Part shown: positions 13,207 to 30,855 of the stretch, one piece after another
Numbering within the stretch: the first letter of the stretch is position 1
Layout of the letters: the number at the start of each line of letters is the position of its first letter
Source: Escherichia coli
GTDB taxonomy: Bacteria > Pseudomonadota > Gammaproteobacteria > Enterobacterales > Enterobacteriaceae
Reading direction: 5' to 3' (one strand)
Assembly (NCBI RefSeq): GCF_001677475.2
Contig: NZ_CP015229.1
DNA length: 64,000 nt
Notes under the pieces: generated by a model
What the model saw: the letters and a program-made list of their open reading frames with translations, nothing else
What the model was told of the DNA's origin: nothing
The model's database searches: none
Program-made: the position numbers and the translations under genes

Positions 13207-13689
13207 ATGTCAGGACCTCCGAAAACCCCGCCACGCCTGCATTTGATACGAGGCAACCCCTCAAAGCGCCCCGTTAAAGACCACAAAAAAACCGCTAAAA
13301 AGGATGAAAAAGGTCTTCCTAAAATTCCGCAGCATTTAGGGGCTCAGGGGAAGTACTGGTTCAGGCGAATGGCGGAAGAGCTGAATGCGGAAGGGATCAT
13401 TTCTCAGCTTGATGCGCGTGCACTCGAGTTGCTGGTGGAAGCCTACACCGAATATCGGCATCACTGCGAAACACTCGATGTTGAGGGGTATACCTACCGC
13501 ACGGAAACGCAGAGCGGTGATGTACTGATTAAGGCGCACCCCGCGGCGGCAATGAAAGCGGATGCCTGGAAGCGGATCCGGGCAATGCTTGCAGAGTTTG
13601 GTATGTCACCGGCAAGCCGGGCTAAAGTAAATATCGCCGGACCGGATGATGTTGATCCGCTGGCGGAGCTTTTAAAAGCGAGAGACTGA
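13207..13689 (+). CDS. Terminase small subunit (P27-family type)
   Basis: 160 aa; homologous to island ORF at 27601..27957; precedes TerL. Confidence 0.7.
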   Translation: MSGPPKTPPRLHLIRGNPSKRPVKDHKKTAKKDEKGLPKIPQHLGAQGKYWFRRMAEELNAEGIISQLDARALELLVEAYTEYRHHCETLDVEGYTYRTETQSGDVLIKAHPAAAMKADAWKRIRAMLAEFGMSPASRAKVNIAGPDDVDPLAELLKARD

Positions 13690-14716
13690 TGGCAAAAGTG
13701 GCTGACGGGATCCGCTACGCCGAACGTGTTGTTGCAGGAGAAATTGTTGCTGGCGAATTTGTCCGCCTGGCCTGCCAGCGTTTTCTTGATGATCTGAAGT
13801 ACGGCGAAGAGCGGGGGATTTATTTCAGTGAACCCCGTGCGCAGCACATCCTGAATTTCTACAAATTTGTGCCTCATGTAAAAGGGGCGCTGGCAGGCCA
13901 GCCCATTGAGTTGATGGACTGGCATGTATTTATTCTCATTAATATTTTTGGTTTTGTCATTCCGCTGGTCAATGAAGAGACCGGGGAAGTTGTCATGCGC
14001 AGCGATGGCAGTGGACGTCCGGTGATGGTGCGCCGGTTCCGGACGGCGTACAACGAAGTCGCTCGTAAAAACGCAAAATCAACTCTGTCATCGGGTATCG
14101 GCCTGTATATGACGGGGGCAGATGGTGAAGGCGGAGCTGAGGTGTATTCAGCCGCAACCACGCGTGACCAGGCCAGAATCGTGTTTGAAGACGCCAAAAA
14201 TATGGTCAGAAAAGCCCGGTCGACACTCGGGCGGTTGTTTGATTTCAACAAGCTGGCGATTTACCAGGAGCAGAGCGCATCAAAATTTGAACCGCTTTCT
14301 TCGGATGCAAACAACCTAGACGGTCTGAACATCCACTGCGCCATTATTGATGAGCTGCATGCACATAAAACCCGCGACGTGTGGGACGTTCTGGAAACGG
14401 CAACCGGTGCCCGTCTGCAGTCCCTGTTATTTGGTATCACCACGGCGGGCTTTAACAAGGAAGGGATTTGTTACGAGCAACGCGATTACGCCATCAAGGT
14501 ATTGCGAGGCTATAACAGCGACGTGGAGGGCGCGGTAAAAGACGACTCCTACTTTGCGATTATTTACACGCTCGATGAGGGAGATGATCCGTTTGATGAA
14601 ACGGTCTGGCAGAAAGCGAATCCGGGCCTGGGCATCTGTAAACGCTGGGATGATCTGCGTCGTCTGGCGAAAAAAGCGAAGGAGCAGGTCTCGGCGCGGG
14701 TGAATTTTTTCACGAA
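13689..14716 (+). pseudogene. Terminase large subunit, N-terminal (ATPase) fragment, interrupted by island insertion
   Basis: Homology to intact island TerL (VCPHVKGA..PIEL, RKNAKST Walker-A-like) stops near 14716; ORF then runs into island DNA and ends at 14882. Confidence 0.8.
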
Positions 14717-14887
14717 GAAAGTAACATCACGCCGTAACAACAGTGCAGTCTGTCCTGATTTTTTTAGTAACCAAATGAAAGAAAAAGATTTTTTCTTGTT
14801 CGTCGTTTTTGTTTTTTCTGGATGGTTCTGGCTGTTTTCATCATTTGTGTATTGCACTGTGTATTGCAAAAACGGGTTATAAATCAC

Positions 14888-16111
14888 ATGGCGCTAAACA
14901 AACTGAGCGATAAAAAACTTCGTTCCCTGCTTGGACGCAGGAGTGAGAGACAGGAAACCATCGCTGATGGTAACGGGCTTTCGGTACGGGTCAGTAAATA
15001 CGGATGTGTTAGTTTTGTTTTCTTTTACAGACTGGCGGGAAGGGGAACCGCGCCCATCTGGCTGACACTTGGAAAATATCCTGATCTGAGTCTCAAATCA
15101 GCGAGAGAGATGCGCGATCAGTGTCGAACCTGGCTTGCGGAGGGCAGAGATCCACGGATTCAGATAAAAATTGAACGGGAAGCCACCTTGCAACCTGTTA
15201 CCGTTCGTGAGGCACTTGAATACTGGCTTGATAATTATGCAATGGATAAGCGTAGGGGAGCAGAACATATCAGGCAGTGCTTTGGTAAACATATTTATCC
15301 GGTGATTGGTCATGTACCACTTAGTGATTGCTCTATATCTATGTGGATTAAGTGTTTTGACAAAATAAAAAAAGTAGCACCTGTACAGGCCGGAGCTTTG
15401 TTGCGTATATCAAAACAGGCGCTTAAATTTTGTAGGGTAAGAAAATACGCGATTAGTCATGAAATTGATGATCTTGAGGTCTGTGATGTGGGAAAAAAGT
15501 CTGCGCGAAGAAGCAGGGTTTTAACAGATGATGAAATCAGAGATTTATGGCGAAGTATTAATACTGATTATGACAATCACGAATTATCATATGAAAACCG
15601 AATTATTTTACGTTTCCTGGTAGTTTTTGGTTGCCGACTGTCAGAAGTATTACTGTCGTCCTGGGGAGAGTGGGATTTTGATAAGAAATTATGGCGCGTT
15701 CCCGCTGAACATAGCAAAAATGGCAGGGAAATAATCAGACCGATTCCTGATGGCATGTTTAACTGGTTAGTTACGTTAAAAAAAATAACAGGTAACAAAG
15801 AAAATGTGATTGGGTTTGATATGCGTCAGTGTACGGCAAGCGTAACTATCGGTAAGACATGGAAAAGGATGAAACACTCGGAGAAATGGACGGCGCATGA
15901 TATGCGAAGAGTGTTTGCCACAAAACTAAGTGATCATGGTTTTGAACATAATGTGGTTGAACAGTTGCTTGGGCACACATTAGGCGGTGTTGCCGGGGTT
16001 TATAACAGAAGCCAGTATATGGACAGAAAAAAAGAAGCTATGAACTGGTGGTACGACTATCTGAATAAGCAAATTAGTGGTGACGGTAATGATTCAAATA
16101 GTTACGCGTGA
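14888..16111 (+). CDS. Tyrosine integrase (P4-like)
   Basis: About 407 aa from MALNKLSDKKL; C-terminal catalytic motifs (HDMRR, LLGH, VYNRSQY tyrosine); AT-rich; at island left end. Confidence 0.85.
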   Translation: MALNKLSDKKLRSLLGRRSERQETIADGNGLSVRVSKYGCVSFVFFYRLAGRGTAPIWLTLGKYPDLSLKSAREMRDQCRTWLAEGRDPRIQIKIEREATLQPVTVREALEYWLDNYAMDKRRGAEHIRQCFGKHIYPVIGHVPLSDCSISMWIKCFDKIKKVAPVQAGALLRISKQALKFCRVRKYAISHEIDDLEVCDVGKKSARRSRVLTDDEIRDLWRSINTDYDNHELSYENRIILRFLVVFGCRLSEVLLSSWGEWDFDKKLWRVPAEHSKNGREIIRPIPDGMFNWLVTLKKITGNKENVIGFDMRQCTASVTIGKTWKRMKHSEKWTAHDMRRVFATKLSDHGFEHNVVEQLLGHTLGGVAGVYNRSQYMDRKKEAMNWWYDYLNKQISGDGNDSNSYA

Positions 16112-16310
16112 AGAACTTGAAAATGATAAAACAATCGACAGGATGATTAAGGAAGATGAATGTGCATGGTTAACCGCTCTTGGCAGGAGACACAGATCGT
16201 TACTTGAAAAGGAAGGAAAATTTCCACGAAAAATATGTATTGGTCCACAAACAAAAGTCTGGCGCTTATCTGAGGTGCTGGAATGGGTAAAAGGTGAATG
16301 GAAACCCTGA
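16089..16310 (+). CDS. AlpA-family transcriptional regulator
   Basis: Small HTH protein; C-terminal ...WRLSEVLEWV typical of AlpA/Xis-like regulators; directly after int. Confidence 0.55.
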   Translation: MIQIVTREELENDKTIDRMIKEDECAWLTALGRRHRSLLEKEGKFPRKICIGPQTKVWRLSEVLEWVKGEWKP

Positions 16311-29602: not shown

Positions 29603-29659
29603 CGGAATGGATGAGAGAGGACAATGCTCATTTAATGGAATAAATTTTCAGTATTACCG

Positions 29660-29840
29660 GCACCCACTTTCAGGGATGTTTTTGCGGGTTATTTGAGGGG
29701 TGTTTGCGGGTTATTTTGAATGTCTTGCGGGTTACATTCTGGCTGATATTTAAATACGTTGTTTTTTTAACGTATTGATATTAAAGAGTAAAAGATAATT
29801 AGCACGCGAAGATAACCCGCTAACCCGCATAACCCGCACT
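29660..29840. repeat. Direct and inverted repeat cluster (TTGCGGGTTA / TAACCCGC) near island right end
   Basis: 3 direct copies of (T)TTGCGGGTTA within about 60 bp and 3 copies of the inverse AACCCGC(T/A) about 120 bp downstream, in a non-coding AT-rich tail. Confidence 0.5.
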
Positions 29841-30118
29841 GTTTTGTATATATATACGAAAAATTGCATTCAGGGGGGATCGAAATTTCTACTGCCTCTT
29901 ATCTCTTTGAGTGCTCACCTCGTCAGATTGTTACACACAAGAAATAAAAAATGCTTCGCGATGGTAGGTCGAATCACTGTATCAAAAAACGGTGTGTATC
30001 AGCATTAAAACAATACAGATACGTGTATTGCGCTGTGTATTGCTCGATGATTTATAAAGACTGTTTTTTCATGTTAAACGATTGATATACAGACGATTTT
30101 AAAAAGCTTGAAATATTC

Positions 30119-30855
30119 TCACGAAACACATGAATGTGTGGGTCACTGCCGAATCGGCCTGGATGGACATGATTAAGTGGGAGAAGTGCGAATACATCGC
30201 TCCACAGCATGAGCTGAAAACGTATCCCATGTGGGTCGGCGTCGACCTTGCACATAAGATTGATATCTGTGCGGCGGCAAAACTCTGGCGAACGGATAAC
30301 GGGCATGTTCATGCCGATTTTAAATTCTGGCTTCCGGAAGGGCGACTGGAACGGTGTTCACGGCAGCAGGCAGAACTTTACCGGAAGTGGGCGGAGATGG
30401 ATAAGCTCATCCTGACGGATGGTGATGTTATCGATCATGCTCAGATAAAAAGTGACTTACTGGAATGGATTGGTGGTGAAAACCTCAGGGAACTGGGATT
30501 TGACCCGTGGAGCGCGATGCAGTTCAGCCTGGCACTGGCTGAAGAAGGGATACCGCTGGTGGAGGTTCCGCAGACGGTCCGCAATCTGTCAGAGGCCATG
30601 AAGGAAACGGAATCACTGGTCTATGCCGGACGTTTCCACCACAGCAATCACCCGGTCATGAACTGGATGATGTCTAACGTTACGGTGAAACCGGACAAAA
30701 ACGACAATATCTTCCCGAATAAATCCACGCCGGAAGCCAAAATCGACGGCCCTGTTGCGATGTTTACAGCAATGAGCCGGATGCTGGTCAATGGCGGTGA
30801 ACCGGAGCCGGATCTGTCTGAACACCTGATCAGTGTTGGTATCCGCTCGCTTTAA
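30119..30855 (+). pseudogene. Terminase large subunit, C-terminal (nuclease) fragment of the prophage
   Basis: Homologous to C-terminal half of island TerL (VGVDLA..., GFDPW..., ...DGPVA...); joining with 13689..14716 restores a continuous ~590 aa TerL. Confidence 0.8.

Follow-up and report, generated by a model that had tools for sequence, protein, structure and literature searches.

Helper-embedded phage-inducible chromosomal islands (HE-PICIs) were defined by Tommasini, Mageeney and Williams (NAR Genomics and Bioinformatics 2023, PMC10111431), whose survey comprised 491 satellites found at 14 sites in nine prophage late genes and belonging to one integrase clade. These satellites are organized in four zones, namely Integration (Int and AlpA), Bro, Replication, and Late, with C4/isrK-type RNAs in the Bro zone and a Late zone rich in late genes that were treated as "captured" cargo (PMC10111431). 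They also share a specific doubled motif, tgTGTATTGCantgTGTATTGCa, which is present as two co-oriented copies at -81 ± 2 and +132 ± 2 bp from the centre of the attachment site attP (PMC10111431). The reversible disruption of a helper late gene by these elements has been named "regulated gene integrity", and many of the helpers look truncated, "abandoned" HE-PICIs being common (PMC10111431). One of the site groups, A:Terminase_1:246, includes the catalogued members Eco33.15.A_Terminase_1_246 (E. coli 042) and Eco146.15.A_Terminase_1_246 (UMNF18) (PMC10111431). Here, we describe a 64,000-nucleotide stretch of Escherichia coli DNA (contig NZ_CP015229.1 of assembly GCF_001677475.2; hereafter, the window), in which a 15.4-kb island separates two pieces of the terminase large subunit (TerL) gene of a resident lambdoid prophage. 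Our analyses strongly suggest, with a probability of about 0.85, that this island is an HE-PICI of site group A:Terminase_1:246 that carries a late module of the capsid-forming type (cf-PICI). The initial annotation of the window, made from the sequence alone, had considered the integration target unusual; this view has to be given up, as HE-PICIs of this site group were described in 2023 with the 042 and UMNF18 islands listed by name (PMC10111431). The arrangement was therefore already known, and the window provides a clean example of a catalogued group.

A terminase gene divided by a 15.4-kb island

The two parts of the resident gene and the attachment sequences of the island are as follows:

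13689..14716, + strand: N-terminal fragment of the resident prophage TerL, with the ATPase domain and the start of the nuclease domain (open reading frame, Pfam, alignment)
14710-14716, + strand: crossover core TCACGAA of the left attachment site, attL (junction sequence)
14845..14868, + strand: doubled motif TGTGTATTGCACTGTGTATTGCA, downstream arm copy, starting 132-134 nt after the core centre
30021..30044, + strand: doubled motif CGTGTATTGCGCTGTGTATTGCT, upstream arm copy, ending ~79 nt before the core centre
30119-30125, + strand: crossover core TCACGAA of the right attachment site, attR (junction sequence)
30127..30855, + strand: C-terminal fragment of the resident prophage TerL, with the remaining nuclease domain (open reading frame, Pfam, alignment)

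The open reading frame (ORF) 13689..14882 is TerL-like up to ...SARVNFFTK (...AKEQVSARVNFFTK) and unrelated to TerL beyond that point, and ORF 30130..30855 corresponds to the TerL C terminus. Joining 13689..14717 to 30127..30855 gives 1758 nt encoding 585 aa with a single terminal stop, and the product aligns with 0 gaps to an intact TerL of the same length annotated in E. coli E2528-C1, 582 of 585 positions (99.5%) being identical. This is in agreement with the proposal of the initial annotation that one TerL frame is split by ~15.4 kb, and the continuous full-length match that it had anticipated was obtained. The join that it had put forward (13689..14716 to 30119..30855), on the other hand, amounts to 1765 nt and is out of frame because both copies of the 7-bp core are retained; one of them must be dropped, as expected for the target duplication made by an integrase. 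In the joined protein, the Pfam domains TerL_ATPase and TerL_nuclease cover residues 112-268 and 283-563, respectively, and the break at residue 343/344 therefore lies inside the nuclease domain.

An 800-nt probe across the healed junction was searched against 5,426 complete E. coli genomes. The uninterrupted TerL, i.e. the empty site, was present in ~905 of these genomes, with 95-99% identity and at least 80% coverage, and the TerL join is therefore not due to chance. Occupied junctions were found in 35 genomes with an attL probe and in 34 with an attR probe, so that the genome search proposed in the initial annotation yielded both uninterrupted copies of this TerL and the same island at the same site (~35 genomes). 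E. coli 042, UMNF18, and 2014C-3075 each carry this island at the identical position in TerL.

The core sits in the TerL nuclease-domain codons F-T-K. When a longer identity block between the two att sites was sought, only the 7-bp core plus loosely similar bases upstream was found, which is normal for HE-PICIs; a "tcacgaa" identity block is catalogued for Eco15324, Eco15204, Eco15205, Eco11232, and Eal51 (PMC10111431 supplement). Across genomes, the attB core is polymorphic at the F-T-K wobble positions (TTACCAA, TCACGAA, TCACAAA, and TCACCAA). The homologous position in the TerL that the island itself encodes reads ...CTCACCAAGCGATTC..., with different flanks. The predicted attP junction of the island is ...AAATATTCTCACGAAAGAAAGTAACATC... 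(also given as ...GAAATATTCTCACGAAAGAAAGTAACATCACG...), and the attB of the healed TerL is ...GTGAATTTTTTCACGAARCACATGAATGTG.... A tyrosine integrase recombined the island attP with the 7-bp core in the resident TerL, and the insertion was precise and co-oriented with its target. The target is disrupted without any replacement TerL end being supplied by the island, and precise excision would, from the sequence, regenerate the intact 585-aa protein.

Several further features place the island in the published group. One copy of the HE-PICI-specific doubled TGTATTGC motif (30021-30044) lies ~79-81 nt before the core and the other (14845-14868) 132-134 nt after it, in agreement with the published distances; the two arm motifs are intact, as are the two att cores. 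The attL and attR of the window match the entries for A_Terminase_1_246 in Supplementary Files 3 and 4 of the survey, TCACGAA variants included. In pairwise comparisons over 407 aa, the integrase showed identities of 99.3% and 99.0% to those of the two catalogued islands of UMNF18 and 042, and these same two islands were also retrieved independently as close relatives of the window island. The order of zones is Int/AlpA, Bro, replication, and late, and the int, alpA, rep, and late genes lie on the + strand, as does the helper late gene that the island splits at residue 343/344. The agreement of this break with position 246 of the old Terminase_1 profile is approximate only (178 ATPase positions plus ~62 into the nuclease model), because Terminase_1 has meanwhile been replaced in Pfam by separate models for the ATPase and the nuclease. 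The accessions of EDL933 and Sakai are absent from the HE-PICI supplement.

Gene content of the island and of the resident prophage

All island genes but two lie on the + strand, co-oriented with TerL, and the features of the island are listed below:

14888..16111, + strand: tyrosine integrase, 407 aa, full length (family search)
16077..16310, + strand: AlpA-family excisionase/regulator, copy 1 (Pfam Phage_AlpA)
16374..16652, + strand: AlpA-family excisionase/regulator, copy 2 (Pfam Phage_AlpA)
16710..17303, + strand: Bro-N/anti-repressor-like protein of the Bro zone (family match; the orthologue is annotated as a BRO-N domain protein)
17916..18140, - strand: YlcI/YnfO family protein (family match)
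18535..18739, + strand: P4-type immunity RNA region (RNA family search)
18761..18964, + strand: Icd-like cell-division-inhibitor coding region, with an uncertain start codon and an in-frame ATG at 18791
19380..19930, + strand: two small conserved ORFs of the phrog_2196 and phrog_285 families, the phrog_285 ORF being at the position of a DUF4222-annotated ORF in relatives
19927..21336, + strand: replication protein of the RepA-family helicase type, 469 aa (family match)
21332..21553, + strand: three AAAAAGTGGGG(N)GCAAAA iterons ~84 nt apart, directly downstream of rep (repeat search)
21787..22212, + strand: single-stranded DNA-binding protein, SSB (family match)
22216..22509, + strand: PerC-like transcriptional activator (family match; orthologue annotation)
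22841..23314, - strand: accessory ORF, 157 aa, between the replication and late zones, a typical cargo position in PICIs
23609..24754, + strand: HK97-fold major capsid protein, 381 aa (family match)
24804..25364, + strand: prohead maturation protease (family match)
25366..26580, + strand: portal protein (family match)
26573..26872, + strand: head-tail adaptor Ad1, 99 aa, the sole connector gene of the island (family match)
26872..27312, + strand: HNH endonuclease, packaging accessory (family match)
27296..27481, + strand: small conserved ORF phrog_3173, between HNH and TerS (PHROG match)
27601..27957, + strand: terminase small subunit (TerS), P27 family (family match)
27941..29602, + strand: the island's own TerL, 553 aa (family match)
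29684..29837, unstranded: six GCGGGTTA octamers, three direct and then three inverted, around an AT-rich centre, between the island TerL stop and attR

In the immunity region, a C4 antisense RNA at 18652-18739 scores 72 bits against a gathering score of 45, and a c4-a1b1 target-like site upstream of it (18535-18584) scores below the gathering score. Two Icd-like C termini (...ARIRQG...), ending at 18504 and 18964, flank the C4 RNA within 18260-18964, and their pairing suggests a duplicated or recombined P4-type immunity segment. The iterons next to rep mark a putative island origin. For the 157-aa accessory ORF, no match was found in PHROGs, NCBIfam, PADLOC, or Pfam; its position is taken by an unannotated gene of equal size in UMNF18 and by a different gene in 042. 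PADLOC returned nothing for six further small island ORFs. The island cos site is probably located in the HNH-TerS interval, judging from the layout of HK97-type genomes.

The late zone is of the cf-PICI type. The alignment of the capsid to PDB 9GYI is full length and scores 626 bits (~80% identity by eye); this entry is cited in the paper reporting the capsid of the cf-PICI EcCIEDL933. When the cf-PICI core set is taken as int, alpA, rep, capsid, protease, portal, connector, adaptor, HNH, TerS, and TerL, 10 of the 11 components were found (threshold, at least 9 of 11) and no tail or holin genes were seen among the ORFs examined, corresponding to "Type B" in SatelliteFinder terms. Of adaptor and connector, only one gene (Ad1) was found, and there is no head-closure-like ORF between portal and HNH. 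The content listed in the initial annotation (integrase, AlpA, replication, and head and packaging genes without tail or lysis genes) was recovered except for the full connector pair, for which there is a single adaptor gene. The description of the locus as a satellite resembling capsid-forming PICIs and nested in the TerL of a related prophage also holds, the island being bounded by att sites and co-oriented with its target. The cf-PICI searches further call for a chromosomal site never occupied by prophages, and the present island lies inside a prophage gene; we regard this as a search rule and not a mechanistic feature, while noting that in its integration the island is not a typical catalogued cf-PICI. 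By homology (the 9GYI match and the island's own HNH, TerS, and TerL), it would be expected to form its own small (T=4) capsids, to package only its own DNA, and to use helper tails.

The integrase and the full head and packaging module, whose genes have phage homologues, could also be what is left of a second, degraded HK97-like prophage inside the first, with no satellite involved. This is very improbable, because no tail or lysis genes were found among the ORFs searched in 14.7-30.1 kb, none are annotated in the orthologous islands, and no repressor/Cro or Q-type genes are present in the island. The inward-facing int, AlpA, Bro-N, P4-type C4 RNA, and PICI-type replication module constitute a satellite architecture, the capsid is closest to that of an experimentally proven cf-PICI, and the same 15-kb gene set with the same boundaries recurs in many genomes, unlike the outcome of random decay.

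The resident element is a lambdoid prophage of the HK97 head type, whose upstream part carries an O-like replication gene, RusA, the Q antiterminator, two tRNAs, and a TerB moron, followed by holin, endolysin, Rz, HNH, a P27 TerS, and the split TerL. Downstream of the TerL C-terminal fragment are the resident portal, protease, capsid, Ad1, head closure, neck, and tail terminator genes and, further on, those for the major tail protein, tape measure, J, and side fibres; judged by ORF length and family, the lysis and tail modules of this helper are intact. Two features of the resident prophage are of particular relevance:

33687..36092, + strand: IS21-family insertion sequence (IS) in the resident major capsid gene, with istA at 33780-35279 and istB at 35276-36031
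52540..52627, - strand: tRNA-Ser(UGA) at the right end of the composite prophage, beside hyaA (tRNA search)

[quoted passage not shown]

The presence of two head sets bears on the possibility, raised in the initial annotation as a refutation, that the head genes at 14.7-30.1 kb are simply the prophage's own module in an unusual order, and on the further possibility of an assembly artefact as the cause of the split. A superficial duplication of gene functions is all that speaks for these readings, and their probability is close to nil. Past the TerL C-terminal fragment, the resident phage has a portal, protease, capsid, and connector set distinct from that of the island, and the head and packaging proteins of the two sets share only 20-41% amino acid identity (32% for TerL), confirming the stated homology between them as a distant one; there is no BLASTP similarity between the island and helper Ad1. 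Misassembly is at odds with identical junctions in ~35 independently finished genomes. With the 582/585 match of the healed TerL, both readings were rejected.

The resident phage is crippled for a further reason that the initial annotation had missed. Its major capsid gene is present as two halves, 32933-33686 and 36093-36572, and the alignment to the UMNF18 capsid orthologue breaks at 33686/36093, where a 2.4-kb insert encoding IstA and IstB is bordered by ACCCGTG at both junctions. The insertion is a local feature of the window; in 042 and UMNF18, the annotation gives capsid genes of full length. Because this IS21-family element splits the helper capsid gene, the resident phage cannot make heads of its own whatever the state of TerL, and the prophage is therefore at best a donor of tail and lysis functions. 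Such damage would fit a stranded relic, in which island and helper are both decaying without excision, packaging, or transfer and the split TerL is a scar with no regulatory role in the source strain. The many truncated-looking HE-PICI helpers noted in the published survey (PMC10111431) point the same way, as do the single connector gene of the island and a Bro/immunity zone that is unlike that of its relatives, contains two Icd-like segments, and may reflect rearrangement. We nevertheless consider a relic unlikely, since a helper capsid is not needed by a cf-type satellite, each late ORF of the island is equal in length to its orthologue in 042, UMNF18, or 2014C-3075, Int is full length and 99% identical to that of relatives, the att cores and arm motifs are all intact, and the healed TerL is 99.5% identical to an intact one.

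Comparison with the relatives shows the window copy of the island to be a mosaic. Identity to UMNF18 is 94-97% in two blocks (12.7-17.7 kb and 21.75-33.7 kb), whereas the Bro/immunity segment (~17.7-19.4 kb, the least alike) and the replication gene differ from both 042 and UMNF18. Most relatives have a DUF927 primase at the position where the window has a RepA-family helicase, the latter being common to the window and the island of E. coli 2014C-3075 (NZ_CP027447.1). The island of this strain is the closest relative among complete genomes, and its host prophage carries stxA1d/stxB1d just upstream of the lysis genes (2640-9018 and 24085-24828 of the retrieved NZ_CP027447.1 stretch). Since its island lies in the TerL of an Stx1d prophage, HE-PICIs of A:Terminase_1:246 can therefore sit in Shiga-toxin prophages. 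A search of a phage-genome collection with the island gave only weak matches to other cf-PICI-like deposits, which covered no more than 24% of the island at 75% identity.

Proposed behaviour of the embedded island

The ORF of the TerL N-terminal fragment runs into island sequence and stops at TAA 14880-14882, 5 nt before the int ATG at 14888, and a scan found no terminator-like site in the stretch from this fragment to int or in that from the island TerL to the resident C-terminal fragment. A scan for sigma-70 promoters and terminators at the right end of the island (29500-30200) also found none. The 5-nt gap without a terminator-like site suggests that int is coupled transcriptionally, and perhaps translationally, to the helper late operon. 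The steps that would follow SOS induction can be drawn from the experiments on Eco567.11capE (hereafter 11capE), an HE-PICI in a capsid gene, and from cf-PICI biology. In the lysogen, the P4-type C4 RNA probably holds the island quiescent. Upon induction, the whole composite would leave the chromosome and replicate, and Q-dependent late transcription would proceed through the lysis genes, HNH, TerS, and the TerL N-terminal fragment into the island int and alpA, a read-through proposed because of the lack of a terminator-like site and the chimeric ORF ending 5 nt before the int ATG. Int and AlpA would then excise the island, healing the helper TerL; the circular island would replicate from its own module of rep, iterons, and SSB; small capsids would be built from its capsid, protease, and portal; and its DNA would be packaged by its own HNH, TerS, and TerL, with head-closure, neck, and tail parts as well as lysis being supplied by the helper.

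According to this scheme, the TerL site may act as a reversible switch, helper TerL being blocked until the island excises. The claim of the initial annotation that insertion abolishes packaging of the resident phage would then apply while the island is integrated, and not as a permanent effect, given that 11capE excised and restored its late gene (PMC10111431). An island placed in the packaging ATPase of its helper and bringing a divergent TerL of its own would gain a head start in packaging and would decide when, or whether, the helper packages. The HE-PICI paper does not discuss control of packaging by embedding, because late genes are treated there as "captured" cargo (PMC10111431). The resident prophage, for its part, may be reduced to a dedicated donor of induction, tail, and lysis functions in a stable two-part unit of which only the satellite is transmissible. 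The GCGGGTTA octamers are also of interest in this context: there are 7 copies in the window against 1.6 expected, 6 of the 7 lying in 29684-29837. The cluster could be a binding array for a regulator or a terminase, or an element through which the satellite acts on the helper late genes further downstream. The block around the cluster shares 93-97% identity with the islands of 042 and UMNF18, and a 22-nt sequence beside the cluster, ATTCTGGCTGATATTTAAATAC, recurs at 23419-23440, upstream of the island capsid gene. Taken as a whole, the idea that embedding combined with capsid formation gives the satellite control over helper packaging, with the resident reduced to a donor and the GCGGGTTA cluster acting on the helper, is put forward tentatively, as a possible but doubtful extension of the HE-PICI assignment.

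Several points weigh against the reading of the island as a functional, capsid-forming HE-PICI. The timing of excision is extrapolated from 11capE, which is a capsid-gene HE-PICI without its own terminase, and even in the 11capE study virions were not recovered (PMC10111431). With a single adaptor gene (Ad1) and no head-closure gene, the island departs from cf-PICIs of the EcCIEDL933 type, and the notion that it "only steals tails" may therefore not hold; the lack of BLASTP similarity between island and helper Ad1 likewise makes compatibility with the resident tails uncertain. The left end of the helper, which bears on its inducibility, lies outside the window, and with the helper capsid disrupted by an IS, the prophage may be decaying and the element an "abandoned" HE-PICI.

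From a broader point of view, the window mainly confirms a known type, an HE-PICI at a terminase site with the published hallmarks, which could be recognized from raw sequence. Such islands make a prophage packaging gene conditional on satellite excision, and because they occur in pathogenic E. coli, in one case in the TerL of an Stx1d prophage, they could modulate toxin-phage production and gene transfer. The arrangement itself will not surprise specialists.

Comparison with known systems

The closest described systems are the A:Terminase_1:246 HE-PICIs of 042 and UMNF18, with which the window island shares the same TerL codons, attL/attR flanks, 7-bp core family, arm-motif spacing, and a late module that is 93-97% identical at the nucleotide level; the UMNF18 helper is also located at tRNA-Ser, as is the helper in the window. 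On the other hand, the window has a RepA-type helicase where these islands have a DUF927 primase, a different Bro/immunity segment, and a helper capsid gene disrupted by an IS21-family element.

Satellite phage P4 and the window island both have an antisense immunity RNA of the C4/CI type; a target-like site lies upstream of this RNA, and an Icd-like ORF comes after it. P4 itself relies on P2-type helpers and inserts at a tRNA gene, and it lacks genes for a capsid or a terminase.

The cf-PICI EcCIEDL933 (Alqurainy et al.; bioRxiv 10.1101/2022.09.08.507074 and 10.1101/2025.02.11.637232) is similar to the window island in size (15.4 kb) and in encoding int, alpA, rep, and its own capsid, protease, portal, HNH, TerS, and TerL without tail or lysis genes. 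Its int, alpA, and rep are those of classical chromosomal PICIs, and cf-PICIs as a group use bacterial chromosomal attB sites (Alqurainy et al.), whereas the window island has an HE-PICI integrase and a site in a prophage gene. Islands of the EcCIEDL933 type also carry both adaptor and connector genes, where the window island has only Ad1, as do its 042 and UMNF18 relatives.

Eco567.11capE of E. coli NRG857c, which is found in a lambda-E-like capsid gene, resembles the window island in lying within a helper late gene in the orientation of that gene, in its integrase clade and attP motif, and in disrupting its target without a replacement sequence. In that system, the composite excised and replicated first, and the satellite then excised precisely, restoring the late gene (PMC10111431). 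At 11 kb and without terS or terL, 11capE is presumed to use the cos machinery of its helper, whereas the island in the window has TerL as its target and encodes HNH, TerS, TerL, portal, and protease of its own.

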